Positions 4,705 to 61,546 of a DNA stretch of 64,000 nucleotides are shown one piece after another. The stretch is from a virus: IMG/VR virus record IMGVR_UViG_3300042987_002978, positions 40,852 through 104,851 of that record; one strand, given 5' to 3'. A program made the position numbers and the translations under genes. Under the pieces are notes generated by a model. It was not told where the DNA came from. It did no database searches and saw nothing but the letters and a program-made list of their open reading frames with translations. The stretch's first letter is position 1. Every line of letters starts with the position of its first letter.

Positions 4705-5135
4705 AGGAGTTTTTCTTTGTTTTCTTCGGCGAGCGCGAGCGCCTGCTTTAGCATCCGGCTCGCCGCGATAGGGTCCACGCCGTTGGCAATCGACCATGCC
4801 GTCCCCACAACGTTCGAATAGGTGATGATTTCTCCGTCAAGCATTGCTTCGCCGACATCGTGAAGCGGCCTACGCAAAACGAACGCCAATGTCTGGCGCA
4901 TCGTGTTATAGGGCTTTTTCTCAAGTTGTTCTTGCCATGACTCAAGGCCACCAAAATATTCCTCAATGTCAGAAATCGAATTGTTATTGAAACGAATGAA
5001 AAGGGTCTCTGTAACGACCTCTTCTTTCTCGTCGAGCACTCGTGCCCAATCCGATTCACCCGCACCAGTTTTTTGCGTCTTGGCAAATTGGCACGGAATT
5101 CCCTTGTTCTTTAGCACTGTAGGTGTATAGTCCAT
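4602..5135 (-). CDS. Tail assembly chaperone
   Basis: Lies between major tail and tape measure genes. Start MDYTP is 6 nt after a TATGCT -10 box. Confidence 0.8.
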   Translation of the reverse strand: MDYTPTVLKNKGIPCQFAKTQKTGAGESDWARVLDEKEEVVTETLFIRFNNNSISDIEEYFGGLESWQEQLEKKPYNTMRQTLAFVLRRPLHDVGEAMLDGEIITYSNVVGTAWSIANGVDPIAASRMLKQALALAEENKEKLLENLEQIMPPAQDNGTSGSDSGVKRAARSKNSGN

Positions 5136-7389: not shown

Positions 7390-9579
7390 CTAGTCGCTTT
7401 TCTTCTCCATCAATCTCTTCATCAAATCCTTGACAAGTGACTGCTGCTCGATTTCGTCGCCTTCGGTCACTGCGTCGACGACGGAACGCTTCGCGTCGAC
7501 CAAATCGTAAATGTCTTCGTCAATTGTTCCGGAGGCAAGCAAGTACCAGGCCTGCACATTGTTCTTTTGTCCGATTCTGTGGCAACGGTCTTCTGCCTGG
7601 TCGTGCTCGCCGGGAGTCCAACCCATCTGGACGAAGACAACGTCGGAGCCTGCCGTCAATGTGATACCTACTCCACCAGCCTGAAGGTTGAGGACGATGA
7701 CTCTTGCGGAAGGGTCAGTCTGGAATGCATCGACCGCTGCCTGTCTTTCTTCGAGTGAGTCGCGCCCGCTGATTCTCAGATTGCCGTACTTCTCGGCAAG
7801 ATGGTCGACCACGTCGATGTTGTGGGCAAACACAACAAGTTTGCGGTCACACGATTCAAGGAACGAATCAATCCATTCCTCGACTGCGTCCATCTTCGCC
7901 CATGCGGCGAGGCGCTTAAGTACTTGGGTTCGCGCCAGATGCTCGCCTGAGTCTTTTGCCTTGTAGCCGTTCTCTCGCAAGAACAGAACGAGGTCATCTT
8001 CTGCCGATGAGTAATCTTTGTAACCTTTTCCGGCCACGTCGAGGTGAACGATGTTGCGGCTCTTTTCGGGAAGTTCCTTCAGGACTTCGTCTTTGGTCCT
8101 GCGGATGTAGCAGTTCTGCCTGAGTTTGGTATTGAGTTCAATCAGGTTGCTTGCTCCGCTTGTATCCCAGCCGAATCCGTTGTGGTAGGCGCCTGCATAA
8201 CGCTTGAGGAACGCCCATTTACCGCCGAAGCGGCCCAGCATCCCCATGATTTCCAATTGGCTCACAAGTTCAGACGGGCGATTGGTCACCGGCGTTCCGG
8301 ACAGCAGTAGAACGCTGCCCGAATTTGGGACCATCTCGGCTATGTCCTTTGCCGCCTTGGTGCGCTTGGACGAGGCGGTCTTGACATAGTGGGACTCGTC
8401 CAGCACCAGCCCGTTGATTCCTAAGTGTTCTATTGCCTCCACGAATTTGTACAAAATGTCGTAGTTCACTACGTTCACATCGCAAGCAACTATATCCGTC
8501 TTGCCGGACACGATATTGACCGTTCGGTGCGGCAGCCACTTGTTTATTTCTCGCCTCCAGTTCTCCTTGAGCGAGGCGGGACAGACTATGACCGCAGGAA
8601 ACGCATCGCGCATTTCCAGTGTTGCTATCGCTTCTACGGTCTTGCCAAGGCCCATTTGGTCAGCGACAAGACACCTTCCGACAGAAGACGCATAGGCGAC
8701 ACCAGCCTTCTGGTACGGCATCAGAGTTCCGGAAAGATTCGGGACATGGATGTCGGCGTCGGTTGAAGCCGACTTTTCAAGCAGTTCTGCCTCGCGTTTC
8801 GCCGAAGTCAACAGAGTCTTGCGCAGACTCTCCGACATTGAGAATCCGTACTTGTCCGCTATCTCCACGACCGACAAGACGGGTGGGGTGGACCAAACCT
8901 TTTTCTTTGCGTCCCACAGCCGACCTGGGATGTTCTTGATGTCGGCGACAATGTCCGGGTGGTAGGCGAACTCAAAGAGCAGGCGCCCGCTCTTGGACGT
9001 TGTTATCTTGCGGTCTTCTATTTGTGTTTGTTGCATTGTTGTGTTCATATGGTTGAGTTCTTCCGATGGGACGAATCCGTATTGAGAGACCAGTTTAGCG
9101 ACTTGTTCGGAACTGGACAAGGGTGCCACCCAAACGAGTGCTTTATTGTTCCACGAGACTCCGGGTATTTTCCTGATTTCCTCAATCAACTGCTCGTCAT
9201 ATTCGCAGCGCACGACGAACAGTTCCCCGTTGCTCGACACGGTATTCCGCGCTGCCGCATTTGTCGAAGACACCATTTCGTTGAATCCATGAGTGAAATC
9301 ATCCGGTCGCATCGGTGCAGGAATCTGGTCGTACTCGATTCCCAGCCCGGAAAGTTGGGTCTGATACTTGGCGAGCATTTTCCACGCTTCGTAGACGACC
9401 ACAGAATTCCACTTCGATACCGGGATGAGGGCCAGCATCGTGCCGTACCGTGCGTCGGCCTTGTTGAATCCGATTCCGTCCGTCGACTCTGCGCCGTCAC
9501 AAATTCCGGCAAGCGTGCGTATTGCTTTTGCAAGCAGTGACGCGTCGTAGCCGTCTATTTGTCGGTCAGGTTCGCCCAC
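7390..9579 (-). CDS. SNF2-family ATPase with two N-terminal HARP-like domains (SMARCAL1-like)
   Basis: ADQMGLGKT, LDESH, LSGTP and QAEDRCHRIGQ motifs. Two repeats Y....IE/A.I+.IPG..W....K.W..P. Start set at GTG 9579 (approximate). Confidence 0.88.
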   Translation of the reverse strand: MGEPDRQIDGYDASLLAKAIRTLAGICDGAESTDGIGFNKADARYGTMLALIPVSKWNSVVVYEAWKMLAKYQTQLSGLGIEYDQIPAPMRPDDFTHGFNEMVSSTNAAARNTVSSNGELFVVRCEYDEQLIEEIRKIPGVSWNNKALVWVAPLSSSEQVAKLVSQYGFVPSEELNHMNTTMQQTQIEDRKITTSKSGRLLFEFAYHPDIVADIKNIPGRLWDAKKKVWSTPPVLSVVEIADKYGFSMSESLRKTLLTSAKREAELLEKSASTDADIHVPNLSGTLMPYQKAGVAYASSVGRCLVADQMGLGKTVEAIATLEMRDAFPAVIVCPASLKENWRREINKWLPHRTVNIVSGKTDIVACDVNVVNYDILYKFVEAIEHLGINGLVLDESHYVKTASSKRTKAAKDIAEMVPNSGSVLLLSGTPVTNRPSELVSQLEIMGMLGRFGGKWAFLKRYAGAYHNGFGWDTSGASNLIELNTKLRQNCYIRRTKDEVLKELPEKSRNIVHLDVAGKGYKDYSSAEDDLVLFLRENGYKAKDSGEHLARTQVLKRLAAWAKMDAVEEWIDSFLESCDRKLVVFAHNIDVVDHLAEKYGNLRISGRDSLEERQAAVDAFQTDPSARVIVLNLQAGGVGITLTAGSDVVFVQMGWTPGEHDQAEDRCHRIGQKNNVQAWYLLASGTIDEDIYDLVDAKRSVVDAVTEGDEIEQQSLVKDLMKRLMEKKSD

Positions 9580-10074: not shown

Positions 10075-13000
10075 TTACTCGGTATCCGGCTCTTTCATGT
10101 GCAGCCACATCGCCGCGGCAATGGCAAGAACCGTCGATATTCCGGCAATTTTCTGAATAGGCCCGGACAAAGTTAAATAAACGACAAGTGAGCCCGCAAT
10201 CGTGAAGCCCATGTTCATGAGCCCGTACGAGAACTTCTTGAAGAATGCTTTCCAGTCCATCACTTTCACCCCATTTACGTACTTAAAGATGCTGATGTTC
10301 TTTATCCAATCTAAACCATCGCCGGCAATCTCGCCTTGAGGCTCTTCCTCGTCATCCTCTCGTCTAGCCGCAGTGTCCTGTCGCGTGCTCGGCGCACTTG
10401 GGCCAGACGATGAAGGTGAGCCACCCGACATTCCGCCAGTCGCTGTCATTGAAACGGCAGCAGCAGACGTGAGCAGTCCCGCTGCGATGACCGTGCGGCG
10501 CTCTCCGACGCTGATGTTCTGGTTCAACATCTTGTATCCGTCAAATGCGCCTTGGAACAAGTCCACGACATCCTCAAAGACTTCACGGACATCAGAGGGT
10601 GCTTCCTGGACCGCGTCCACGATTTGCTCGGCAACTTCTTCTGTAAGTTGCTCTGCCTCGACGCTCTCAAATACCTGTGCGGCCTGTTCCGTACTGACCG
10701 ACTCAAGAACGGCAGGATTGGAGGCAAGAGTTGCTGCTACTTCTTGACTGACCCCAGCCTCGATTACAGCGGCCACCACGGCCACGATTTGTTCTTTCTG
10801 CTCTTCTGTCAAGGACTTGGGGTCTTCCACTTTGGTGATTGCCTCGATTACCTCGGCCACCACCTCAGCAACCCTGTCTTCGGGGACGGAATCAATCAGG
10901 TCAGCCACGACTTCTGCCGTCTCTTCGGGGGAGGCGTCCTCCAGTTCGGAAACTGCCTCTTCTACGGCTTCAGAAACCTCAGACTCTGGCTCTGGTACCG
11001 TTGTTTCTGGTGAGACAGGTTCTGGGTCTTCTTGCTCTTGGGGCAACACTGTTGTTTCAGTTGGCTGTTCTTCTTGCTCTGGCTCTACGGGGTCCTCTGG
11101 AAGAGTCGTATCTGGAGAAACATCAGCAGGGGTAGACGGTGTTGTTGTTTCGGGCTCTTCGACAGGCTCTGGTGTCGTGGTGGTCGTTGAATCGGTCTCT
11201 TCGGGAATGGTCGTCTCAACAGGCTCAGGCTGAGTGGTCGTCGTCGTCTCAGGCTCAGGCTCAGGCTCGGTCGTTGTTGTCGGAGGAACAGTCGTTATCG
11301 GGGGAGGCGCTTCCGTCGTCGTTGGAGCGGGGGCTTGGGTCGTAGTCGTCTGAGGAGCAGGGGCGACAGTCGTCGTAGTAGTGCTGGTCGTGGTAGTAGT
11401 CGTGGTACTGGTCGTCGTGGTCGTGGTGGTCGTCGAAGTAGTGGGGTCAACCACCGTCACGTCGACAGTCGAGTACGGCCCGTATGTGCATGAGCCTTGG
11501 CCTTCGCCAACACATGCAGCGCTTCCGGCGCGAACCTTGAATCTGACAGGTCCGTATCCGGTGGTTCCCGGAAATTGATACGAACCGACCACATAGGCGG
11601 TATTCGTGGCGTATGTCCACACACCCCAGCCGCCAGACTCGACATTATTGTTCAAGTCGAACCAACTGACGTCGTACATGTGCGGTGAAAGATTGCCTGA
11701 GGCTGGGGCATCCCAATCAAGAGAAACGCTTCCGTCTTGGTTGGCCGAACCTGTCAAGTTTTGAACTTGATTAAAATACGGGACAACCGTAGTCGTAGTT
11801 GTAGTCGTAGTGGTCGTAGTGGTTGTTGTGGTTGTTGTAAAAGTTGGATTCGGGTCGACAACGCTCGCCACCGCAGTTGAATTGCTGTAGCGGAGCATGT
11901 CAACAAAGTAAATGTCTCCTTCTGCCGGAAGGGAGAATGACGAAATAATCTTGCCGTTTCCGTTGAAGTAAATCTCTTTGTAATAGCCAGGTGCTTGGCA
12001 GGTCGAGCATCCTGCTGTCAATACCGAGTTTCCAATGGTAAATGTTGTGGTTGTTCCGTCTGAATATGTCACAGTTCCAGTTGCATCACCGTTCTTCGCC
12101 CCGACACGGAAGTAAAAACTTCTTGGAGTTGCCGATGATGGAAGTGTGAACAGCGCTGACTGCGACGGGTTGCCGGCATACACGGCAACACCGGTCGTGC
12201 CGTAACCGTTGTTCATGTTTGCGTAATACCAACCTGATTGATTGCTTGACGTGAGCGCACTTCCATTCACTGAAACCGTCACTCCAGTTGTCGGTCCTGG
12301 ACCCTCAAAATCCTCCGTTGTTTCCGTTCCGGTGCCAGGAGAGGGAACAGTCGTGCTCGTAGTGGTCGTTGTCGTTGGCGCAGGCGCAGTCACGGTGATG
12401 TTCATTGATTCGCTTACCACGATGCTTGACGGCATGTTGTATTCAGCGACATAACCTCCGACGCTTGACCAGGAATCGGGAAGGTCGTTCCAGCAGTTGC
12501 CGCCACTCCATTTGGTGACAGCGGCATCCTCGTTGCCTGAGTTGTTGGGCTCGCCACCGCACCACTTGGCGTAGTTCCCGCCTTGTGCAGACCCGTTGCT
12601 AACGCCGCGCCAGACAAGCGTTCCTTGTTCAGGAGAGCCGTCGTATGGGTCAAGAACCCAGTCACCTTCGACTGCCCTGTCGGAAAGGGCTATCCAGATG
12701 TTGTACGCACCTTGGATTTTGCTGAGGACGAACTCGTGTTCCGCGTCGGATGTGATGGTCACCAAATAGCCATTTACTCCGCTGATTGTTCTTGTCCGCG
12801 CCGCTGTCCTTGCATTCAAGTAACTGATGTTCCCTTGGACAAATTCATACAAATGGCCGTTAAAAAATGCAGTGTTGTTGACTTTCTCAGATACCTCAAT
12901 AGTCAATGTTGCGGAACCAGCCGTCGCGCCAGAATCCAGAGTCATCGCATCAAGCGCCGTATTGATGTTCGTTTGATTGCCAGTGAAATTGATTTGCGAA

Positions 13001-13356: not shown

Positions 13357-14469
13357 TTATAGTTTCGCTATCTTGTTAAAGACTTCTATCCACTGCGACG
13401 CTGTTTGTTTGATGGAAAACTGTTTGGACACTATCGTTCTTGCTCTTCTTGACTCTTCTTCTCGTTTAGCAAGATTCAGGAACGAATCAAGGTGATTTTC
13501 CCATTCTTGTTGTGATGAGGCGACTCGGCCCACCCCAGCATTGGCAAGGTACTCGTACTCCGGAAGATTTGATGCGACAAAAGGAATTCCTGCCGCCGCA
13601 TACTCAAGACCTTTTATGAATGACTTGGCTCGATTGAACGGTATGTCGTTTAGCGGGACGATTCCGATATCAAAATTTGCGTAGACATTGGGCAAGTCGT
13701 AGAGCGGCACCATGGGACTGACGGAGCACAAATCGGGGTTTATCTTGAGCCTCAGATAGGCAGGACCAGCCCAAGGGATGTGTCCTGCATGGTGGAAACG
13801 GGCATCGCGACTGGTCAGATATTCGTTGAAGAACGGCGATATCTGCTCAAGGTCCATGGACCGCCACGGCGTGGCACCGAGCCACCCAATTATCGGCTTG
13901 CGCTTCACCGTCCTGAATCGAGTCCATCTTTCTATGTCAATGGCGTTGCGGACCATGAATATGGGCTTCTTGGGGTATTTCTTTTTGTAGTACTGCTCTA
14001 TGAATGGCGTAGAGCAGATTAGGGCGTCGGCGTTCTTGATTATCTCCGCGTAAATCTCCCTGTTGCTTTCTTTGGATTTTGCAGGGTCGGTCGACCTATA
14101 GGCGTGGTTTGTTTCGTGCAGTTCTTCGTGAAGGTCGTCGATATCTACCACGATTTTTTGACCGATGGCTTTTGCTTTCGGCATCGCCTCAAGGGTCTGT
14201 GCCGACATGATTACCTTGAGAACGATTATTCCGTGCCTGTGCGAAAACGTGTCGTTCAGCCGCTTGATGACGAACTTACCGTTTGGCTTTATGGACAAGA
14301 ACCCGAAACTTGCGTGGATTCCGGCAAGATTCAACTGCTGTGCCGGAAGTATGCACCTGTACCACGTGCAGCCGTTCGGTACGTATTGGTCTTCGTCTCT
14401 TCCCCAATCGAGCGAAGCAAACCCGACGCTGAACGTAAGTCCTTCGTCTTTGAAAACGTGGCGATTCAT
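13357..14469 (-). CDS. GT-B (GT4-like) glycosyltransferase, paralog 2
   Basis: DIDD, IGWLG, DIGIVPL..FNRAKSFIKGLEYAAAGIPFVAS. ATGA overlap with the upstream gene. Confidence 0.88.
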   Translation of the reverse strand: MNRHVFKDEGLTFSVGFASLDWGRDEDQYVPNGCTWYRCILPAQQLNLAGIHASFGFLSIKPNGKFVIKRLNDTFSHRHGIIVLKVIMSAQTLEAMPKAKAIGQKIVVDIDDLHEELHETNHAYRSTDPAKSKESNREIYAEIIKNADALICSTPFIEQYYKKKYPKKPIFMVRNAIDIERWTRFRTVKRKPIIGWLGATPWRSMDLEQISPFFNEYLTSRDARFHHAGHIPWAGPAYLRLKINPDLCSVSPMVPLYDLPNVYANFDIGIVPLNDIPFNRAKSFIKGLEYAAAGIPFVASNLPEYEYLANAGVGRVASSQQEWENHLDSFLNLAKREEESRRARTIVSKQFSIKQTASQWIEVFNKIAKL

Positions 14470-15572
14470 GTTATGTCCATGATGCTGGTGTACACGTGTT
14501 CCCATTGCGATGCGAAAGAATCGATTGAGAAGTGCTCGGTTATTATTTCTTTGTTCAACTCCGACTCGTCGACGCGCATGTTGTAATCCATCAGTTCGTT
14601 GAAATGCGCAATCCACTCTTCGTCCGTTTTCGCTATTCTTCCCACTCCGGCGTCCGCCAGGTATTGATATTCTGGAGTATGGGACGCGACGAACGGGATT
14701 CCTGCGGCGGCATATTCAAGGCCTTTCAAATATGACTTTGCGTGGTTGAATTCGACGTTGTTCAAAGGGACTATGCCGATATCGATGTTCTTGTAGAGTT
14801 CCGGAAGTTGCGTCATAGGAAGCATCGGCGTGGTGCTTACTTGCTTGTCGTCGATTCCAAGAAGCGAGGCGGCGCTGTCCGCCGCGGCTATGTGGCCGGA
14901 GTGGTGAAAAGTCGTGTTCTGCGATATCAGGTATTCCTTGAAGAAGGACGACAACTGCTCTAAGTCTCTTGAACGCCACGGAGTCGCGCCAACCCAACCG
15001 ATTACAGGTACGGAACGTCTGGTGTTGCGCTTGGGCCACCGACCGATGTCGATGGAGTTTCTCACCATGAACACAGGCTTTGTAGGGTGCTTTTTTGAAT
15101 AAAAGTCGTACAGGAACGGCGTCGAGCAAATCAGGGCATCGGCCATTTCAATGACTTGAAAATAGATATCGCGATTGTTGTCCTTGTGAAGTTCCGGGTC
15201 GGTCTGCTGACGAGCCCTGTTCGTCTCGGGAAGATTGTCGAACCAGTCGTCTATATCAACGACCACACGGACCTTGTTCGCTTTTGCTATTTGTACCGCT
15301 ATGAGGTTTGCGGCGTGCATCGGCAGTTTGAACACCAGCATTTTGTGACCCGAATAGATACCTTCCGTCTTGTACAGAGGTGCACGTACGCGAACGCCCA
15401 CCTTGCCGTCGGCGACCGATATGGTTCCGATTTGGCAGGCATGATTACGTCGAATCATTGCCATTGCCGGAAGAATGCAGCGATACCAAGTGCAGCCGTT
15501 GGGAAAAGACAGATTCTGGACTTGAGACCAGTCCTGAGAGATGAACCCGATGCTGAGCGGCGTGGTTGGCAC
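14466..15572 (-). CDS. GT-B (GT4-like) glycosyltransferase, paralog 1
   Basis: Same motifs (FNHAKSYLKGLEYAAAGIPFVAS). Shares PNGCTWYRCILPA with its neighbour. Leaderless GTG 6 nt after TAACGT. Confidence 0.88.
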   Translation of the reverse strand: MPTTPLSIGFISQDWSQVQNLSFPNGCTWYRCILPAMAMIRRNHACQIGTISVADGKVGVRVRAPLYKTEGIYSGHKMLVFKLPMHAANLIAVQIAKANKVRVVVDIDDWFDNLPETNRARQQTDPELHKDNNRDIYFQVIEMADALICSTPFLYDFYSKKHPTKPVFMVRNSIDIGRWPKRNTRRSVPVIGWVGATPWRSRDLEQLSSFFKEYLISQNTTFHHSGHIAAADSAASLLGIDDKQVSTTPMLPMTQLPELYKNIDIGIVPLNNVEFNHAKSYLKGLEYAAAGIPFVASHTPEYQYLADAGVGRIAKTDEEWIAHFNELMDYNMRVDESELNKEIITEHFSIDSFASQWEHVYTSIMDIT

Positions 15573-15621
15573 GCCTATACGTTAGCGAAAATACTTGCTC
15601 AGCACCCGCAGATTATGTGTT

Positions 15622-16209
15622 TTATAGGGGCACCCAGTGGTCAAGCGAATTCAAAGATTTTTGTATGCTGCCGTATGAATGTATGTCAAACGCAATCGTT
15701 ATTCGTGGTTCATCTTTTAGGGGCTTGGATGTTTTGTGGAAATTATCGTTTGACTTTGCAAACACCAGCAACCCGTCCTTTGAGTCAACTTTTATGCGTT
15801 GACCATCATCGAACTTGTACTGAGTATTTCCTGCACTTGACTTGACACAAAAAAATCCGTGGTACGAATGCTTGCTGCCATAGTGTCTGTGCCAATCAAG
15901 TTTTTGTTTGTCTCTGTAAACATTCACCCAGCCTTGAATGTAGTATTTTTTGGACACATCAATGTCTGCCGAATAAAAGGTATCTCTTATCGCACAGTAG
16001 AGAGAATTAAGTTCTACGGACGGATAGCAAAAAACGTTGTAAAAGTCTGCCACCCGCGTGCCGAACGGGGTGTCTTCATCAATTTTGTAGTTTTGTGGTT
16101 TGTCTGAAAGCGTGCTGGCAACCAACTCTTCTATCTCCAGACATTGTTCAGAAAGTTCTCGCAGGTCAATTTCTTCCAGCAGAACAGAAACTATTTTTCT
16201 TCTTGCCAT
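15622..16209 (-). CDS. 2OG-Fe(II) oxygenase-like protein
   Basis: GWVNVY..LDWHRH..YHGFFCV..FHKT..RITIAFDI (HxH...H...R). Confidence 0.75.
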   Translation of the reverse strand: MARRKIVSVLLEEIDLRELSEQCLEIEELVASTLSDKPQNYKIDEDTPFGTRVADFYNVFCYPSVELNSLYCAIRDTFYSADIDVSKKYYIQGWVNVYRDKQKLDWHRHYGSKHSYHGFFCVKSSAGNTQYKFDDGQRIKVDSKDGLLVFAKSNDNFHKTSKPLKDEPRITIAFDIHSYGSIQKSLNSLDHWVPL

Positions 16210-16219
16210 ATGCTCAGTC

Positions 16220-16741
16220 TCAGAAATAGTTAAAGTTGATAACAATTCTGTATTTCGTGTTCGTGTGCGTTGTCCCAGCGTGGCTCATTGTTGCCGGGAA
16301 TACAACGACTCTATTGGCAACACTTTCTACTTTTGTGCCATCCTCGAACAATGTATATCCGTCATTCGTGTTTAAGTAGTAAATGGCAGTCTTCATTGCT
16401 GACATGACCTCAGGTTTTCGCAGCATCGTAGGATAAGCAATGTCCGTGTGCATGTCTGATACTTCTATGGTCGGTGTTGATGGTCTGAAATTTGCTTTTG
16501 CCCTGACAAGTACGTCCGACTTCAAATTGCGCAGAAGTGGGGCCAGCACAGAGTAGTAGGGGCTCGTCTGACTGTTGTCCCTGTAGAAAATGTGGGTGAA
16601 TTGAAAATCGTTCAGCGAGCGACTGGGTTTGTCTTTGTAGACTACGCTGTTGTTGTAATGCCAATTAAATTTCACGTCGGTCAGCGTCGTAAATATAGCC
16701 GAGTGTTCTTCCTTTTTGAGGAATTCGTCAATGATTTCCAC
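16220..16741 (-). CDS. 2OG-Fe(II) oxygenase
   Basis: MHTD..TAIYYLNTNDGYT.F..KVESVANRVVVFP..HAGT..RIVINFNY. GTG start 7 nt after TATACT. Confidence 0.85.
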   Translation of the reverse strand: MEIIDEFLKKEEHSAIFTTLTDVKFNWHYNNSVVYKDKPSRSLNDFQFTHIFYRDNSQTSPYYSVLAPLLRNLKSDVLVRAKANFRPSTPTIEVSDMHTDIAYPTMLRKPEVMSAMKTAIYYLNTNDGYTLFEDGTKVESVANRVVVFPATMSHAGTTHTNTKYRIVINFNYF

Positions 16742-16776
16742 GCTGCCAAGTATAGTAGAATGATACGGAGAAAAAT
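16742..16776. promoter_or_regulatory. Back-to-back -10 boxes of a 35-bp divergent promoter
   Basis: TATACT on the minus strand (16749-16754) and TAGAAT on the plus strand (16756-16761), then GGAG. Confidence 0.6.
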
Positions 16777-17451
16777 ATGTTGATTCAGCCGTACGCAATC
16801 TACGACAATTTCTTGGATGACCCAAGCGCAGTAATCAGGTCTCTTCGCTCGCAAAGGTATTACGTGCAGGGACTACCGGATACGGGACAAGTGTCGAACA
16901 ATGACATACCTCTGGAAATCAACTACGGAGACGAAAGCGTCACCGGAGACCCGAGGTTTGGTTCGCCCTACTGGAAGGGCTACAGGACCAGGGACCTGCA
17001 AGAAATAGACATGGACAGTTACAACATAATCATGAGCAAGTTGCTTGAGCACATATTCGGCTCGTTCACATTGGCACAGATTGAGTTTGACGCCGAAACA
17101 CATTTCCACCTCATGACCAAAGACTTTGTTTTTACTGATACGTGGTTCCACTCCGACGCCAGCAAATTCATTGCCGGCGTTTTGTACCTGGCAGAAGACC
17201 CTGGTCCGAACAGTGGGACGGCGCTGATGATAAACGGTGAAAAAGTCTCAATAGAAAACAAGTTCAACAGGTTGATTGTCTATAACGCTGGCTTGACGCA
17301 CAGCGCAGAAGGCTGTTTCGGGGACTCGCTTGAGAACTGCAGGGCTACGTTTGTATTTTTTATCCGGAATATCTTGCTGTTCAACGACATATTGGAACAG
17401 CAGGAACCGACATCAATGGGCAATCAGCACAATTACATAGGCGGATACTGA
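16777..17451 (+). CDS. 2OG-Fe(II) oxygenase-like protein
   Basis: YDNFLDDP..WKGYRT..WFHSD..AGVLYL..FNRLIVYNA..HSA..RATFVFF. Confidence 0.8.
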   Translation: MLIQPYAIYDNFLDDPSAVIRSLRSQRYYVQGLPDTGQVSNNDIPLEINYGDESVTGDPRFGSPYWKGYRTRDLQEIDMDSYNIIMSKLLEHIFGSFTLAQIEFDAETHFHLMTKDFVFTDTWFHSDASKFIAGVLYLAEDPGPNSGTALMINGEKVSIENKFNRLIVYNAGLTHSAEGCFGDSLENCRATFVFFIRNILLFNDILEQQEPTSMGNQHNYIGGY

Positions 17452-17458
17452 CAGGCCA

Positions 17459-19165
17459 ATGAGAATCGTAGGAATAAGTACCGCGCACGATAGTTCTGTT
17501 GCCTCATATTGCGACGGCGAAATTGAGTTCTTCATGAAAGAAGAGCGGATTACCAAGCGCAAGAGGGACAAGAACCCATTCGCAGCCATGGTGGAAACGG
17601 CCAAATTCTTGGGCAACAAGAAAATCGACGCAGTCGCGGTATCTGCACCGCACAACACTGATGTCGACAGTTACTTGTTCGCGATAATCGATGCCGCGAC
17701 AAAGATTTTCAAGACAAACAACATATACAAACTCTTCAACAGCCATCACTTGTGCCATGCTTCGTTGGCTTTTTACAACAGTGGATTTGACAATGCTGTC
17801 GTGGTAATCGTGGACAGAAACGGCTCGAACAATCCGAATTCAAATATGCTGCTTTTCGAGTCCGAAACGGTTTTCACCGCGGAATACCCAAGTTCATTCA
17901 AGGAAATAAAGAAGAACTACTGGCTTGCGCAGCGCGGGCAAAGTTCTGATGCGTTCCTGTTGGAACTCGTTCCCAGAGAGAAAACAAAGAGACCAGGATG
18001 TGAAATATCGTACGAGAGTTTGTACGGCATCACCAAGGTCTACGAAACTGCGACCATTCTCATAGGCGAAGGAATTCTGGAAAACGGCAAGACGATGGGA
18101 CTTGCTGCATACGGGAACGAAAACCAAGATTTTCCCAATCTGTTTCTTGACAACGGCTGTCCCAACGACTCCCTGTTCTCCTATGCGATGAGCAGTCGTG
18201 ACAATACGCTTGCTGCGATATATAAAGAATACGCAGGCAAGATGACCAAAACGGTCGACAAAAACGACTATCAGTTTTATGCGGACTATGCGTATCAAGT
18301 TCAAAAGCAAACACAAGAACAGGTGGCAAAACTCATTGAGACGGCGGTACAGCGAACAGGCATAAAGAACGTTTGCGTCTCTGGTGGTTACGGTTTGAAC
18401 GTTGTTGCCAACGGCTACTACATATCGAAGTTCCCAGACGTCAATTTCTTCTTTGAGCCGCTCGCCGATGACACCGGGAACAGCATTGGCGCGGCAATGC
18501 TTGTTTATAGAGAATTGTCAAAAGACAAAACCATACGACCGTTGAAGTCGACTTTCTTCAACGGCCACGAGCCGCATATTTCAGCAGAAGAATTTGACAG
18601 GCACCCGATTTCATATGGCAAGGCAACCGTCAACGATGTTGCAAGATTGTTGGCGGACAACGCAAAACTTGCCATGTTTGCCGGCAAGGCGGAGGGCGGT
18701 CCGAGAGCGCTCGGGAACAGGTCGATTTTGTTTTACCCAAATCTTGCCGACTCAAAAGACATCGTAAATCGAATTAAGAAACGAGAGTGGTACAGGCCGT
18801 TTGCGGCATGTGTCTTGAAAGAAGATGCCTGGGAATACTTTGACATGATGTCGCTGACCGAAAGCCCGTACATGACCGTTTCTTTCGACTGCCGCGCCAT
18901 GACAAAAGAATTGTTTCCGGGGATTGTCCATGTTGACAATTCGTGCAGAGTGCAGACGGTAGGCGAGGAGAACAAGAACCTACATTCCTTGTTGACGGCA
19001 ATAAAAGAACTGACTGGTCACGGGTTGTTGTTGAATACAAGTTTCAATTTGGCCGGCAGCCCGCTGGTTGAAACTATTGACGATGCGATAAAGGTCATGA
19101 TGGAATCAGAACTTGAATACATCTGGATTCCAGAACACCAGACGCTGCTAGGCAAGCAGCGATAG
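17459..19165 (+). CDS. O-carbamoyltransferase (NodU/CmcH/TobZ family)
   Basis: HDSS, EERITKRK, HHLCHA, GKTMGLAAYG, SGGYGLNVVAN, GPRALGNRS, KREWYRPFA, HVDNSCRVQTV, NTSFNLAG.PLVE. Confidence 0.93.
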   Translation: MRIVGISTAHDSSVASYCDGEIEFFMKEERITKRKRDKNPFAAMVETAKFLGNKKIDAVAVSAPHNTDVDSYLFAIIDAATKIFKTNNIYKLFNSHHLCHASLAFYNSGFDNAVVVIVDRNGSNNPNSNMLLFESETVFTAEYPSSFKEIKKNYWLAQRGQSSDAFLLELVPREKTKRPGCEISYESLYGITKVYETATILIGEGILENGKTMGLAAYGNENQDFPNLFLDNGCPNDSLFSYAMSSRDNTLAAIYKEYAGKMTKTVDKNDYQFYADYAYQVQKQTQEQVAKLIETAVQRTGIKNVCVSGGYGLNVVANGYYISKFPDVNFFFEPLADDTGNSIGAAMLVYRELSKDKTIRPLKSTFFNGHEPHISAEEFDRHPISYGKATVNDVARLLADNAKLAMFAGKAEGGPRALGNRSILFYPNLADSKDIVNRIKKREWYRPFAACVLKEDAWEYFDMMSLTESPYMTVSFDCRAMTKELFPGIVHVDNSCRVQTVGEENKNLHSLLTAIKELTGHGLLLNTSFNLAGSPLVETIDDAIKVMMESELEYIWIPEHQTLLGKQR

Positions 19166-50489: not shown

Positions 50490-52415
50490 ATGACATTGCT
50501 AGACCAATCCTTTGTGGACTCCTATTCCCAAAAACGCGCCCCATGGGGCTTCAACGGCATGGGTGAAATCGTTTTCTTGAGGACGTACAGTCGCAAGAAG
50601 GAGAACGGCGACAATGAGACTTGGACTGAGACTCTTCAGCGCGTGGTTAACGGTGCTCACGAAATTGGAGTCGAGTACACGAAAGAGGAAGCAGAGGCGC
50701 TCTTCGACCACATGTTCAATCTGCGCTGCTCATTCTCCGGCCGAGCACTTTGGCAACTTGGAACGCCGCTCGTTCAGAAATTCAATGGGTCGTCGCTGAA
50801 CAACTGCTACTTCACAAACATCGAAAAGATTGAGGATTTCGAACTGTTGTTTGAATACCTGATGCTGGGTGGCGGGGTCGGCTTCTCTGTTGAGCGAGCC
50901 AAGATTCACGACCTTCCCAAGGTCAAGTCTGGTGTAGCAATCACCCATGAGCGCAGCAACGACGCCGACATCATTGTCCCGGATTCGCGCCACGGTTGGA
51001 AGCGTCTGCTTCATGCTGTGCTGAAGTCATACTTTGAGACCGGCAAGTCTTTCTCTTACTCCACGATTCTCATCCGCGAGTATGGAGCGCCGCTCAAGAC
51101 GTTCGGCGGTACTGCTTCTGGTCCTGGTGCTCTCATTGACGGCATCGCCGACATCTGCAAAGTTCTTGACGGACGAGTGGGCAAGAAACTCCGCTCAATC
51201 GACGTGTTGGACATCTGCAACATCATCGGCCGTATCGTCGTCTCTGGCTCTTCGCGTCGCTCTGCGCAGATTGCGATGGGCGACCCCGACGACGTACTAT
51301 TCCTTCGTGCCAAGAATTGGGCTACCGGCTCGATTCCCGCATGGCGCGCGAACAGTAACAACAGCATCTACGCAGATTCGTACGACGAAATCATGCCAGA
51401 ACTCTGGAAGGGCTACGACGGCTCTGGTGAGCCGTACGGCCTGCTTAATCGAAAGTTGGCTCGCAGCGTCGGTCGCCTTGGCGAGAAGAACCCGGACCCT
51501 TCAATCGAGGGTTTCAACCCGTGCGCAGAAATTGCGTTGGCTGACGGAGAATCGTGCAACTTGGCGACCATCTATCTCCCGAACGTCGAGAGTCTTGAAC
51601 AACTGAAGGAAATTTCTATCCTTCTCTACAAGGTCCAAAAGCAAATCACGCGCTTGACCTACCCTTACGAGAAGACGACAAACATCGTCAAGAAGAACGC
51701 ACGATTGGGTCAAAATGTGACCGGAATCTTGCAGGTTTCCGCGGACAAGATTGAGTGGTTGGACGAGGCATACAAGAACCTTGCGGCCTTCGACAAGAAA
51801 TACTCGAAGGAAAAGGGTTGGCCGACATCGGTCCGTCTGACCACAGTTCAGCCGTCAGGAACCCTGTCATTGCTGCCCGGAGTCACCCCAGGAATCCACC
51901 CTGCTTTTGCGCAGTACTACGTGCGTCGCGTGCGCTTCGGCTCCGCTGACCCGCTCGTGGATGCTTGCCGCCGTCGCGGCTACAAGGTCCAGTGGGACAT
52001 CGGCCTGGACGGTCGCGAGGACCACACGCGTTATGTCGTGGACTTCCCGTGCATGTCGCCGGAAGGCTCGGTCCTTGCTACCTCAATGACTGCAGTGGAG
52101 CAGTTGGAGTGGGTCAAGACGATGCAGACCGTCTGGGCGGACAATGCCGTTTCGGTGACTGTGTATTACCGCAAAGAGGAACTGCCCTCAATCAAAGAGT
52201 GGCTGGAAAAGAATTATGACGACGGGGTCAAGTCCGTGTCGTTCTTGCTCCACAGCGACCACAACTTCCCGCTTCCTCCGTACGAAGCGTGCTCAAAAGA
52301 GGACTATGAAAAGATGCTCGCAAGCATTGACTTCACCGTTCCACTTCAGCAGAAGTCGTTCGACGGTGAACTGGACTTGGACGCCTGCGCAACGGGCGCT
52401 TGCCCAATCAAGTAG
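50490..52415 (+). CDS. nrdJ: Class II (AdoCbl-dependent) ribonucleotide reductase, monomeric RTPR type
   Basis: RTYSR, LNNC, RRSAQI, NPCAEI, ESCNL, TTVQPSGTLSLL, C-terminal CATGACP. Confidence 0.93.
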   Translation: MTLLDQSFVDSYSQKRAPWGFNGMGEIVFLRTYSRKKENGDNETWTETLQRVVNGAHEIGVEYTKEEAEALFDHMFNLRCSFSGRALWQLGTPLVQKFNGSSLNNCYFTNIEKIEDFELLFEYLMLGGGVGFSVERAKIHDLPKVKSGVAITHERSNDADIIVPDSRHGWKRLLHAVLKSYFETGKSFSYSTILIREYGAPLKTFGGTASGPGALIDGIADICKVLDGRVGKKLRSIDVLDICNIIGRIVVSGSSRRSAQIAMGDPDDVLFLRAKNWATGSIPAWRANSNNSIYADSYDEIMPELWKGYDGSGEPYGLLNRKLARSVGRLGEKNPDPSIEGFNPCAEIALADGESCNLATIYLPNVESLEQLKEISILLYKVQKQITRLTYPYEKTTNIVKKNARLGQNVTGILQVSADKIEWLDEAYKNLAAFDKKYSKEKGWPTSVRLTTVQPSGTLSLLPGVTPGIHPAFAQYYVRRVRFGSADPLVDACRRRGYKVQWDIGLDGREDHTRYVVDFPCMSPEGSVLATSMTAVEQLEWVKTMQTVWADNAVSVTVYYRKEELPSIKEWLEKNYDDGVKSVSFLLHSDHNFPLPPYEACSKEDYEKMLASIDFTVPLQQKSFDGELDLDACATGACPIK

Positions 52416-55167: not shown

Positions 55168-55243
55168 TGCCCTCGGGTGGATTTGAACCACCGTGTCACC
55201 GCTACGGTTTCTACACCTTATAAGAGTGAGCCGATACGAGGGC
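55168..55243 (-). tRNA. Non-canonical tRNA-like gene, anticodon UAU (Ile), no normal D arm
   Basis: 7-bp acceptor GCCCTCG/CGAGGGC, T arm GGTGG-TTCAAAT-CCACC, anticodon loop CTTATAA, no encoded CCA. Confidence 0.75.
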
Positions 55244-55249
55244 TCGTTC

Positions 55250-55474
55250 TCAGAGTTTGGATATCGAGTCTTTTGTACCGGTGAACAACGACGCGATGTG
55301 CTTCGTGCGTTCGTCGCGCATCTCGTTGAGTTCGCTGACGACCTTCTTGATTTCGCGCTGGACCTTGCGGGGGCGAATCACTTTTTCATAAACCCATACA
55401 CCAGCAACCGCGATTGCCGAGTATGCAATGAGAAAGTAGATGTTCTTTGTGGCGAGTTTCCTTACTTGTTCCAT
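55250..55474 (-). CDS. Small single-TM protein
   Basis: 74 aa, hydrophobic helix followed by a coiled coil. Confidence 0.6.
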   Translation of the reverse strand: MEQVRKLATKNIYFLIAYSAIAVAGVWVYEKVIRPRKVQREIKKVVSELNEMRDERTKHIASLFTGTKDSISKL

Positions 55475-56208
55475 ACGTTCCAGTTTGCCAGACCGCTGGA
55501 TGAATTGTCCATGATGTACTTGGCAACTTTTAGATTGCAGTGGACATCAAACAGGCCTTCAAGCCCGGTGCCGCAGACGTTCTTGGTGACGGTCTTCCAG
55601 CACGAGTTGATTTGCAGAAGGCCACGGTCAATCGACCCGTCCTTGTTCAGGGTCCAAGTCACGTTGCCTTTTGAGTCCCACTTGGCATTTGCCGCGCCGG
55701 GGTTGCACCTTGACTCCCGATAAGCGATGTAGGAGAACACCTCGACCGGCTCCAGTCCGTACTGCTGGAACAATGGCTCAAACTGGGGGCAGCGGTGCGT
55801 GGGGTCATCGGAGATGGTGTAGCGCCGCTTGTGTCCGTCAGTGATTGGGGTGGGAAGGGCAGGGACGAATGCCGTCTCCATCCCGGCGGCTTCGAGGGCT
55901 GCCAGATGGGCCTTTCTCGTAACCTTTCCGTAATGTTGGTCGACGGTCAACCCCAGGAAACCCTGGAGTTTGGCGACTCGCTCGCTTCGCTCGTTGAAAA
56001 CAAAGACCTCTTGGAGAATGGCCTCAGGTCGCGGGGCCGCATTGATTTCATTGAGTTCTGCTTGCCGAATCGAGTGGCTGGCCGCCGAAACCGCTGCGTA
56101 GCGTGGCTCGGGGGCCTCTTGTCTGGTGATTCCGCCATTGGCGGTTCCTACCCCTATCGCTGCTGCCAGCCACAGGGTAAAACCGATTACCGCTTCTTTG
56201 CTAATCAA
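55462..56208 (-). CDS. Secreted lytic transglycosylase (SLT/lysozyme-like)
   Basis: Signal/anchor, AYRESRC, DRGLLQIN, N...A..I..G..NW. Confidence 0.8.
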   Translation of the reverse strand: MISKEAVIGFTLWLAAAIGVGTANGGITRQEAPEPRYAAVSAASHSIRQAELNEINAAPRPEAILQEVFVFNERSERVAKLQGFLGLTVDQHYGKVTRKAHLAALEAAGMETAFVPALPTPITDGHKRRYTISDDPTHRCPQFEPLFQQYGLEPVEVFSYIAYRESRCNPGAANAKWDSKGNVTWTLNKDGSIDRGLLQINSCWKTVTKNVCGTGLEGLFDVHCNLKVAKYIMDNSSSGLANWNVWNK

Positions 56209-56222
56209 AGTGTCTCCTAACG

Positions 56223-56693
56223 TCAGGCCAGAGGCGGGAGAGACTTCGTGAGTCCTAACCTTTCAGCCTCGGCTGGGTTGTCATGCTTCCACCGGTGGTG
56301 CGCTCGGCACAGCACCTGGCAGTTGTCCGGGTCTAAGTAGTTGCCTCCTCGACCCCTAGGGATTACTTCATCGATGTCCAGTGGTCCTGAACACGTAATC
56401 GACCCTACCAGGAATCTTGCCTGACACAACCCCATGTCGCGTTGAAGGACTATACGACGCACCTCTGTCCTCTTCGCGGCATTCTTTTTTGTTTTCTTGG
56501 AGGCAAGGTTGAGTCTTGTCGACTTAAGTTTACGTTCACGTATTTTAATTGGCTTATCCAAACAGTATTTTAATCTTGCCCTGGCATCTTTTTGTCCTTC
56601 TTCAAGATAAAGATTTCCGAACTTTCCACACTTAGGGTGTCCGCAATTTTCTTCTCGTCCTTGGCAATGTCCCTTGTGAGAAAATTTTTTCAT
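56223..56693 (-). CDS. HNH endonuclease adjacent to terminase
   Basis: RD.G.CQ..C..DIDEV.PRGRGG..N...LCRAHH..KH. ATGA overlap with terL. Confidence 0.78.
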   Translation of the reverse strand: MKKFSHKGHCQGREENCGHPKCGKFGNLYLEEGQKDARARLKYCLDKPIKIRERKLKSTRLNLASKKTKKNAAKRTEVRRIVLQRDMGLCQARFLVGSITCSGPLDIDEVIPRGRGGNYLDPDNCQVLCRAHHRWKHDNPAEAERLGLTKSLPPLA

Positions 56694-58024
56694 ACAATGA
56701 TTTTTACTTGCTTCAACTTCCGGTTGGTCAATGAAAGAATCGCGCCAGAGATTGCGTCGACTTGGTCGTCGTGCGCACCGTACGGGAAGACTTCGCACTC
56801 ATCGAAGAAAGGCGTATTCCATGGTCCGCGGGCGACCATGACATTGCCGGATTCTGCCGCAGCAGAAAAAACCCCGGCTCTGTCTTTCTTGGACGTGTTT
56901 GATTTCTGTCCCTTGAAGTTGAATCCTGGAACCACCAACCGCGCGTAGTGGTCGATGACGTTGACGCCAGAAGAACCAGGCTCCTGTTCCATCACGATTC
57001 GAGTCCCCACTCCGTCCTCTTCGGCAGTCGCGCGAATGAGTCTTTCGACTTCGTATGGTGTGCCTCTCATCCTGCGTATATCCAAGATGAAATATCTTCC
57101 GTCCTTCATTCCGACCAATGCGCCGACAGTCCAGTCGGGGTCTGTGCCGTGTCGCGGGGCAGTCGCAGCCAAGTCCCAATAACGAACCTTGTTCATTTCA
57201 TCCGGGAACACTCCCGTAATGTTGAACCATTCGCGCTTGAACATCCCGCCCTCTTCGCGGACTTCCCAGTTTCCGTCAAGAAGTCGGGCGCGCTCGATTG
57301 CGTCGAGTTCATCAAGTGACTTCACGTAGGTTTCGGCGTCCAACGACGGGTTGTCGGAAATCTTGGCGGGCATGAACTTGCGGTCGTCGCCTTTGTTCAG
57401 GATGAACCGTTCGTACACCCAGTTGTTGCCGGGACCTCCCGGGTTCGTGGCTGCACGAGTTCTCAGCGGAATGTCTGCTGCGCTCATCCCGCAGTTCGGG
57501 CAGCGAGGCAGGTTGGCCGCGTCGGAGGGTTTTCTCACTCGCGAGAATCCGACGTACCTGTACACGCGGTCCGTCTTCCACTGAGTCAACTCGTCCACTC
57601 CTACGAAGTGGTAGGCGAACGACTGAAACTTGTACCTGTCGTCGTCTCTTTCGCAGTGGTCGAACGAAAGAGTCGCGCCAGAAGGGAACGTCCATCGCTT
57701 GTTCGTGCCGACGTAGACCGCGTCAGTCCCTGCGAGCCATGCGTTGCATCGGTCGATGAATCCGTCAGGACCCGCGAGTTGGGGATACGTCTGACGCAAG
57801 AGCAGCGCAGAGTATCCAGGCACGCAGGTGTATTGGAGTGCGGACATGAGTAGGGCATCTGATTTACCTCCGCCTGCCGCTCCGCCGTACAGGGCTTCGC
57901 GAGTGGTCGACCATGTGAGAAACGCCGCCTGCTTTGGGTGCATGTGGTGGGGCAGATTCAAGCCGCACGGAATCTTGTAGCCGGTCAGTCCGGCAAGTTT
58001 TTTCCTGATGCTTTCCCTGTCCAT
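56690..58024 (-). CDS. terL: Terminase large subunit
   Basis: YGGAAGGGKS, VDE, ATNPGG, WDLAA, HDDQVDA. Carries a CPNC insertion. Confidence 0.95.
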   Translation of the reverse strand: MDRESIRKKLAGLTGYKIPCGLNLPHHMHPKQAAFLTWSTTREALYGGAAGGGKSDALLMSALQYTCVPGYSALLLRQTYPQLAGPDGFIDRCNAWLAGTDAVYVGTNKRWTFPSGATLSFDHCERDDDRYKFQSFAYHFVGVDELTQWKTDRVYRYVGFSRVRKPSDAANLPRCPNCGMSAADIPLRTRAATNPGGPGNNWVYERFILNKGDDRKFMPAKISDNPSLDAETYVKSLDELDAIERARLLDGNWEVREEGGMFKREWFNITGVFPDEMNKVRYWDLAATAPRHGTDPDWTVGALVGMKDGRYFILDIRRMRGTPYEVERLIRATAEEDGVGTRIVMEQEPGSSGVNVIDHYARLVVPGFNFKGQKSNTSKKDRAGVFSAAAESGNVMVARGPWNTPFFDECEVFPYGAHDDQVDAISGAILSLTNRKLKQVKIIV

Positions 58025-61308: not shown

Positions 61309-61474
61309 AGTTCCTTACCTTAACGATACCGGCATGTACCACTATCGCTAACACTTTTACGATGCAGATAGTTGCCGTCAGTGTCAACTATTTGTATCGC
61401 TGGGGTGAGAGGAATTCGTATCAGTTTCCTCTCATATCACGAATTTCGTGACGGTAGACGAATCCACCACACAG

Positions 61475-61546
61475 AGCCCAGTCTCAGGATTGAACTGAGG
61501 ACCTTCCGCTTACAAGGCGGATGCACTACCACTGTGCTAACTGGGC
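61475..61546 (-). tRNA. tRNA-Thr(UGU)
   Basis: Canonical cloverleaf GCCCAGT..TAGCACAGTGGTAGTGC..CCGC-CTTGTAA-GCGG..TTCAATC..ACTGGGC. Confidence 0.93.

Follow-up and report, generated by a model that had tools for sequence, protein, structure and literature searches.

The 76-nt element on the minus strand at 55168-55243 most probably encodes a functional phage elongator tRNA-Ile(UAU) for AUA codons, in which the D-domain is not lost, as in a D-armless tRNA, but threaded in a different order; we put the probability of this reading at about 0.85. The window, the 64,000-nt stretch of DNA that was analysed, comes from an IMG/VR phage contig of 104.8 kb whose completeness is estimated at 75%. The secondary structure of the element is conserved, it belongs to a large family, and the bases at positions that determine aminoacylation identity follow the anticodon from member to member. 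A tRNA with a non-cloverleaf chain order would run counter to a textbook rule: to our knowledge, all tRNAs known to act in translation outside mitochondria have the cloverleaf order of arms.

The gene and its detection

The element had been predicted from the sequence as a tRNA-like gene of 76 nt with perfect acceptor and T arms, and it is exactly that. The acceptor stem GCCCUCG/CGAGGGC has seven perfect base pairs and is followed by a discriminator A, the T arm (stem GGUGG/CCACC, loop UUCAAAU) is canonical, and the anticodon loop CUUAUAA, with the anticodon UAU, sits on a 4-bp stem. Acceptor and anticodon stems lie 7 nt apart, leaving no D hairpin ahead of the anticodon arm, as had also been claimed, and about 20 nt separate the anticodon arm from the T arm. 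CGG stands at positions 11-13 and CCG at 37-39, and after CCG comes UAGCGGUGACA. The gene's 3' end has no CCA; CUU is found there instead. An exact scan for the acceptor/T combination found near-identical copies in three other viral contigs. These homologs resemble the element from base 1 up to one base past base 76, and since the similarity is confined to this interval the gene boundaries are real. A32U is a variant that occurs in relatives and in contigs of sequencing run X1. A scan for promoters and terminators around the gene gave nothing exceeding shuffles. The parts of the gene are listed in Table 1.

Table 1. Features of the rewired tRNA gene, with positions in the window; numbers in the first column count from the 5' end of the RNA, and canonical equivalents follow an equals sign.
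Feature	Position	Strand	Remarks
Whole gene, rewired tRNA-Ile(UAU), no CCA	55168..55243	-	R1 87.2 bits; RF00005 33.2 bits
Acceptor 5' strand GCCCUCG (1-7)	55237..55243	-	Pairs with 55169-55175; 7/7 pairs change on both sides
U8 A9	55235..55236	-	Invariant, like canonical tRNAs
U10 and CGG (11-13)	55231..55234	-	Topology of canonical D-stem 3' strand (22-25)
U10 opposite U40	within 55231..55234 and 55194..55204	-	Conserved mismatch
C14, junction base, equivalent of position 26	55230	-	Invariant; C14-G33 pair possible, no variation to judge by
Anticodon arm, stem 15-19/27-31 (4 bp and closing U.U mismatch), loop CUUAUAA	55213..55229	-	16-30, 17-29, 18-28 and 19-27 covary
Anticodon UAU	55220-55222	-	
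N32 (A here, variable) and GAAA linker (33-36), from anticodon stem back to D-stem	55208..55212	-	
CCG (37-39)	55205..55207	-	Topology of canonical D-stem 5' strand (10-12); covaries with 11-13
Relocated D-loop, U40 A41(=A14) G42(=R15) C G44 G45(=G18 G19) U46(=U20) G A C A50(=A21)	55194..55204	-	
C51, Y48 equivalent, partner of G42 (Levitt-type 15-48)	55193	-	R..Y covariation
T arm, canonical	55176..55192	-	Covariation of stem
Acceptor 3' strand CGAGGGC and discriminator A73 (55168)	55168..55175	-	A73 in 200/200 Ile members

Cloverleaf-based tools miss the element, as the original prediction had anticipated. In the window, ARAGORN makes a single call, a normal tRNA-Thr(UGU) at 61474-61546, and Rfam at gathering thresholds with default filters likewise leaves the element unreported and gives tRNA-Thr(UGU) as the sole gene. 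With permissive filters, and also in a search of the whole contig, the Rfam tRNA model RF00005 matches these exact coordinates with 33.2 bits (E 4e-5), above its curated gathering cut-off of 29 bits. The element has the 7-bp acceptor stem with discriminator, the 5-bp T stem with a UUCRANY loop, and the anticodon arm with a 7-nt loop, U33 and a purine at 37 that belong to this model, and it differs in having no D hairpin between positions 9 and 26, the D-stem strands flanking the anticodon arm instead. Rfam 15 holds no family for the rewired tRNA. The covariance model R1, built from homologs in the way that the original prediction had proposed, gives the element 87.2 bits (E 3e-21) at the same coordinates as the sole match in the 104.8-kb contig, a match expected by construction since the element is itself in the seed alignment. 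More generally, R1 scores rewired members at 70-95 bits and canonical tRNAs at 26 bits or less, and the separation holds for Arg members outside the seed (70-77 bits).

Covariation supports the nested helix

The acceptor, T and anticodon stems all show compensatory substitutions among the homologs, which were collected with patterns that preset only loops, or only one half. The decisive helix is 11-13:37-39, which encloses the anticodon arm. It occurs as 13 helix types in the Ile members, where it is 99.8-100% paired, and its combinations (CGG/CCG, CCC/GGG, CUC/GAG, ACC/GGU, AGG/CCU, CCG/CGG, UCC/GGA and others) are complementary every time. Among 99 distinct UAU members, 99.2% of all cells are paired compared to 68% in shuffles, and this helix is 100% paired with both-side changes at all three pairs; among 150 members with four anticodons the figures are 97.9% compared to 61% in shuffles and 34-46% for slid partners, with the helix 99.8% paired. 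RNAalifold, unprompted, returns a consensus with the same fold, including helix 11-13:37-39. The extended anticodon stem of the original prediction thus stands for CGG/CCG, which covaries fully, and is not supported for CT/AG: position 15 (U or C) and position 32 (A, U, C or G) vary independently, and C14 and G33 are invariant. A lack of homologs with covarying extended stems, named at the time as the sign of a decayed pseudogene, is excluded by the covariation of this helix.

Most of the invariant positions (UAU at 8-10, C14, GAAA and GGU) were preset in some of the search patterns, and that they do not vary is known from the scans in which those positions were free. The GAAA linker is present in 200/200 Ile and 111/118 Arg members, a count that is partly imposed, as several scans preset GAA or GAAA.

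A relocated D-loop with identity elements

The segment that follows the helix has the consensus U-A-R-(1-3 nt)-G-G-N-(1-2 nt)-C-A-Y. Its GG, UA and CA are invariant, of which GG and UA were preset in most scan patterns and CA was not. The R..Y combination at 42/51 is G..C in 89 and A..U in 85 of the 200 Ile members, and A..U in 104 and G..C in 12 of the 118 Arg members. Among the Ile members the base following GG is U in 199/200, and among the Arg members it is A in every one of the 118; the discriminator, never imposed by the search pattern in the Ile members, is A in all 200 of these, while 107 of the 118 Arg members have G or A there. The bases that would make the contacts of the L shape (U8-A14, R15-Y48, G18/G19 with the T loop) are all present and conserved.

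These patterns can be compared with the known identity elements. The bacterial Ile set comprises A73, U20, A35, U36, A37, A38 and C4-G69, together with U12-A23, C29-G41, G16, and G34 or modified C34 (PMC9976931). The bacterial Arg set comprises A20, C35, U/G36 and A/G73, with A20 as the main D-loop identity element of bacterial ArgRS (PMC9976931). The segment thus behaves as a relocated D-loop, as had been suspected from its GG pair, and the base in its position 20 matches the identity elements of IleRS and ArgRS: the GG is invariant, the R..Y is Levitt-like, and the base after GG tracks the amino acid.

The copy studied here has A73, A35, U36, A37, A38, U20 and C4-G69 of the Ile set. It lacks U12-A23, C29-G41 and G16, with G-C (39-11), A-U (17-29) and C at 16 as the equivalents, and has U at position 34, where the set lists G34 or modified C34. 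In E. coli all of these are minor or context-dependent determinants, and tRNA-Ile with the anticodon UAU does occur in some bacteria.

A widespread family with Ile, Arg and rare Val members

Successive pattern scans gave 19 loci, then 108 and then at least 120, and the family now stands at no fewer than 430 copies and at least 320 distinct sequences (Ile 200, Arg 118, Val 2) from viral, metagenome and MAG contigs. Its anticodons are UAU, GAU and CAU for Ile, all six for Arg and, rarely, one for Val. In scans for the architecture that left the anticodon free, viral contigs contained at least 96 copies with GAU (Ile), at least 28 with CAU (Ile2 or Met) and two with UAC (Val), and metagenome contigs contained Arg copies with UCU (at least 37), ACG (at least 35), CCU (at least 27), UCG (at least 13), GCG (at least 4) and CCG (at least 2). 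At first the fold seemed confined to Ile, because nothing turned up when GGU was kept constant and A was disallowed in the middle of the anticodon; this was an artefact of fixing U20, as Arg members have GGA. The fold is not specific to AUA or TilS because GAU, CAU, the six Arg anticodons and UAC share it, and the proposal that the fold serves as a device for UAU tRNAs to bypass TilS or host anticodon nucleases is not supported. The UAU anticodon alone removes the need for lysidine, which is a property of the anticodon and not of the fold.

Rewired tRNAs are found in unrelated groups: Streptomyces phages, crAss-like phages, and uncultured phages of IMG/VR and metagenomes. With the present copy as query, blastn against 50,697 GenBank phages gave no match, and relatives in GenBank phages surfaced only with GAU members as queries. 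A rewired Ile(GAU) then appeared in about 80 cultured phages, namely Jay2Jay-related Streptomyces phages (Samistivirus) and the crAss-like Kehishuvirus 'tikkala', which infects Bacteroides cellulosilyticus. The gene lies at 75237-75313 in Jay2Jay (NC_029098.1) and at 95577-95653 in 'tikkala' (OQ198717.1). It is without annotation in these records with one exception, Streptomyces phage EGole (MK494112.1 / NC_055791.1, 75265-75341), where it is labelled tRNA-Leu. Among 185,579 species genomes there are 15 true copies, all in MAGs. A 76-77-nt element with one difference is also present in contigs from a marine metatranscriptome and from two runs on wastewater (probably DNA); their flanks are unrelated, which makes them relatives, and as RNA ends are not visible in contigs and DNA carry-over is possible, they speak neither for nor against transcription.

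The oddities that members share (U10.U40, C14, GAAA and the CA before Y48) suggest that the family may have had one origin, followed by identity switches. Directly behind the discriminator, 67 of 121 Arg copies and 42 of 306 Ile copies encode CCA, compared to 1/64 expected by chance. In two Actinomycetota MAG arrays (L185 and L177) the rewired gene abuts neighbouring tRNAs with 0-nt spacers. The first of these (L185:3245-3320; contig CAVZHA010000005.1, 712 kb) has a rewired Ile(UAU) in an array of 23 tRNA genes flanked by pirin-like and ferredoxin-like proteins, not phage proteins, and from this context the family may also be resident in cellular tRNA arrays. A Planctomycetota contig (L190, BJHQ01000010.1) has at ~4892-4931 a truncated copy that starts with the anticodon stem, stops at the T loop, lacks the acceptor strands and may be a recombination or integration remnant. 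As a separate observation, ARAGORN reports tRNAs of 86-94 nt in two phage contigs (L193:1590-1676, 2235-2328, 8525-8611 and 9120-9205; L404:7352-7440 and 10784-10873), assigned to Met(CAU), Val(UAC), Cys(GCA), Ile(GAU) and Ile(UAU), with apparent long extra arms or inserts that are atypical for those identities.

Decoding or another role

A tRNA-shaped RNA that is processed and perhaps charged could have been selected for something other than decoding, as a decoy or sponge for host nucleases or modification enzymes, a regulator or a primer, and the rewired core would then be what sets the RNA apart from host tRNA. We consider this unlikely. In its favour, the fold is limited to few identities, and Jay2Jay has canonical Ile(gat) and Ile(tat) besides the rewired Ile(GAU), together with the repair genes for RNA ligase and polynucleotide kinase, showing that the rewired copy is not always the sole decoder. 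However, the anticodon loops, A73 and position 20 obey the rules of aminoacylation identity, none of which a decoy would need across nine anticodons, and members occupy the slot of a missing isoacceptor in arrays. In the 'tikkala' array the space between tRNA-Trp and tRNA-Met, blank in the annotation, is taken up by the rewired Ile(GAU), and over the 8 kb of the array that were examined ARAGORN detects Ile(UAU) in canonical form and no canonical Ile(GAU); in L066 a rewired Arg(CCU) has canonical Arg(ACG) on one side and canonical Arg(CCG)/Arg(UCU) on the other, and a tRNA-Val is followed by a rewired Ile(UAU).

Nor is there a conserved partner gene that would point to another role: within 3 kb of the rewired gene at 406 loci, no dedicated synthetase, modifier or nuclease recurs except homing endonucleases. 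These are free-standing and recur across anticodon classes (HNH at 69, DUF559/Vsr-like at 36 and GIY-YIG/NUMOD3 at 17 of the 406 loci; examples are L300:2302-2748, L294:403-1071 and L397:1411-2091), with median distances to the tRNA of 197, 83 and 1437 nt by cluster in a count that covers rewired genes. Homing endonucleases may mobilise the rewired genes between unrelated phages.

Competing folds

Far less probable, and refuted by covariation, is a mitochondrial-type D-armless tRNA with a long variable arm like that of class II tRNAs, formed by a hairpin ACCG-UAG-CGGU. In this single sequence 36-39 can indeed pair with 43-46, and the RF00005 alignment drops the D arm, with Infernal deleting 15 model positions and inserting 17 nt in the variable region. 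Among the homologs, however, 36-39 and 43-46 show no covariation: positions 37-39 become GGG, GAG, GGU, CCU, CGG or GGA, and position 43 is C, A, G or U without compensation at 39. The fold of the original prediction was chosen because 37-39 always complement 11-13 while the GG at 44-45 never changes. The T loop and the GG are moreover canonical, unlike in true D-armless tRNAs.

Two further candidates were rejected. The minimum-free-energy fold of the single sequence, a long hairpin that pairs 15-19 with 44-48, is contradicted by U40C and by the covariation of 17 with 29, and an attP site or 3'-tRNA fragment is contradicted by the covariation of both acceptor strands and the lack of an adjacent integrase. 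A decaying tRNA pseudogene, recombination scar or attachment-site remnant without function has next to no probability, for despite rejection by the standard finders and the truncated Planctomycetota copy, the family has 320 distinct sequences in unrelated phage groups, each of its helices shows compensatory substitutions, its tertiary positions do not vary and its boundaries are sharp, and the present copy has perfect stems and the full set of conserved positions.

Proposed architecture

The best reading of the element is an alternative threading of the same tertiary layers, because the GG is invariant, the R..Y positions covary and the base after GG tracks the amino acid. This is the alternative topology that the original prediction had put forward, and the L shape itself we infer from conservation. 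After U8-A9 the chain would enter the strand that is normally the 3' side of the D-stem (U-CGG), pass C14 into the anticodon arm, come back through the invariant GAAA linker, and only then enter what is normally the 5' side of the D-stem (CCG-U). The D-loop (A14, R15, G18 G19, U20, A21) would form last and be joined directly to Y48 and the T arm. In canonical numbering the proposed order is U8 A9 / 22-25 / 26 / 27-43 / 44 / GAAA / 10-13 / A14 R15 G18 G19 N20 A21 / Y48 and T arm, so that compared to the cloverleaf the neighbouring segments 10-21 and 22-45 would be exchanged. There would be no D hairpin and no variable loop, and a normal L shape would arise from the 3-bp D-stem, the 13.22 mismatch, U8-A14, R15-Y48 and the contacts of G18/G19 with the T loop.

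In the L shape of tRNA, residue 44 lies near 10 in the coaxial stack, 21 lies near 48 at the 8-14 and 15-48 layers, and 8 and 9 are close to 22, at the upper end of the D-stem. By this textbook geometry every new junction would connect residues that are already adjacent, and the usual stacking layers could form from the re-threaded order of the D-domain, as its conservation suggests. RNase P, the CCA-adding enzyme, IleRS, EF-Tu and the ribosome would be expected to accept the element because its minihelix, elbow, anticodon loop, A73 and U20 are canonical. Processing, charging with isoleucine and decoding of AUA are thus predicted from the sequence, and an unmodified U34 could read AUG too.

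Genomic setting and codon demand

The gene is a lone Ile(UAU) member that belongs to no tRNA array and lies ~1 kb downstream of terminase and HNH genes. Its same-strand neighbours encode the small and large terminases, an HNH endonuclease and a lysozyme-like protein of the SLT type; the nearest of them, an ORF of 74 aa, ends 6 nt upstream of the rewired gene. Identity of the large terminase to cultured phages (Methanobacterium psiM2 and Gordonia phages) reaches 44% at most, too low for a host assignment. The predicted genes of the phage contain 276 ATA codons, which is 18% of Ile codons or 9.1 per 1000, and the only other tRNA found in the contig, which at ~75% completeness may lack more, is Thr(UGU), which reads ACA, also an A-ending codon. 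Counts made gene by gene bear out the uneven use of ATA that had been noticed: it accounts for 12/33 Ile codons in the carbamoyltransferase gene (17459-19165), for 15/33 in the neighbouring glycosyltransferase-like gene, and for 0/36 in the nrdJ-like RNR gene (50490-52415). This pattern fits a supply for an A-ending codon that is rare in a higher-GC host.

Some features of the surroundings are worth recording in their own right. The glycosyltransferase-like and carbamoyltransferase genes lie in a block of low GC (13357-19165; 46-49%, compared to ~53% for the contig) that looks like a laterally acquired sugar-modification cassette. The SLT-type protein (248 aa, 55462-56208) lies ~220 nt upstream of the tRNA and carries an SLT/lysozyme-like domain at its C terminus (Pfam SLT_3, 31.7 bits); its relatives occur near the rewired tRNA in 26 loci. 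The HNH ORF (56223-56798) and the large terminase ORF (56690-58024), as listed, overlap by ~109 nt, and the true HNH start is probably further downstream. A similar pairing of terminase and HNH occurs in Streptomyces phage Jay2Jay, with tRNA genes ~0.7 kb downstream of HNH.

Relation to known tRNAs

The closest comparison is with canonical class I tRNA-Ile, such as Jay2Jay Ile(tat) at 77444-77518 and Ile(gat) at 92308-92383. The rewired tRNAs share with it the 7/5 minihelix, the UUCRANY T loop, the 7-nt anticodon loop with U33, A37 and A38, the bases A73, U8, A14, R15-Y48, G18 G19 and U20, a length of ~76 nt and the placement in phage tRNA clusters. They differ in the strand order of the D-domain, with the anticodon arm nested in a 3-bp D-stem, the D-loop between the anticodon arm and the T arm, and neither D hairpin nor variable loop. 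RF00005 reflects this difference, with 31-33 bits for rewired and 45-71 bits for canonical tRNAs.

Other non-canonical tRNAs depart from the cloverleaf in different ways. D-armless mitochondrial tRNAs, such as mammalian mt-tRNA-Ser(AGY) and nematode mt-tRNAs (PMC7609411, PMC4013460), also lack the D hairpin and link the acceptor stem to the anticodon stem on the 5' side by a short connector alone. They have lost the D-loop and the D/T-loop contacts and need co-evolved mitochondrial factors, whereas the rewired tRNAs are encoded by bacteriophages and keep G18 G19, A14, R15-Y48 and a canonical T loop. Allo-tRNAs and tRNA-Sec have 8/4 or 9/3 acceptor/T branches (PMC5389517, PMC7609411) and are likewise natural non-canonical tRNAs from metagenome mining, some of them in phages; these alter helix lengths and keep the order of the arms, whereas the rewired tRNAs keep the lengths of the minihelix and alter the order. 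In circularly permuted tRNA genes, known from Cyanidioschyzon merolae (PMC3728597), the order of segments in the gene also departs from the cloverleaf, with the 3' half ahead of the 5' half. Such genes, like split ones with halves at separate loci, mature to normal cloverleaf connectivity. Split tRNAs are found in Nanoarchaeum. The rewired genes, in contrast, have both acceptor strands at the gene ends, no bulge-helix-bulge or intron signal, and 0-nt spacers in arrays, and the mature RNA itself must have the new connectivity because the covarying helices require it. A limited term search of the full-text literature, including a 2020 review of non-canonical tRNAs, turned up no account of such a connectivity, which is not proof of its absence.

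Implications

The exchange of 10-21 and 22-45 is the expected product of a tandem duplication followed by loss, which makes the family a case study in the evolution of tRNA architecture. With much reservation, and as a rather doubtful proposal, we speculate that a single horizontally mobile lineage with Ile, Arg and rare Val members, at work in ordinary bacterial translation, may have been selected for a re-threaded core that hides it from host enzymes reading the D-arm and variable loop (defence nucleases and modification enzymes), keeping Ile and Arg decoding going under tRNA attack. The existence of cultured hosts, Streptomyces griseus and S. lividans for the Streptomyces phages and Bacteroides for the crAss-like phage, makes the proposed decoding directly testable. 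The rewired scaffold also lends itself naturally to the design of engineered or orthogonal tRNAs.

Current phage tRNA repertoires and analyses of codon supply are incomplete for Ile and Arg because tRNA finders and GenBank records miss the rewired genes, and it is tRNAs for these two amino acids that are the classic decoders of rare codons. If the rewired family does work in translation, the cloverleaf order would be dispensable for bacterial RNase P, the CCA-adding enzyme, IleRS, ArgRS, EF-Tu or the ribosome.
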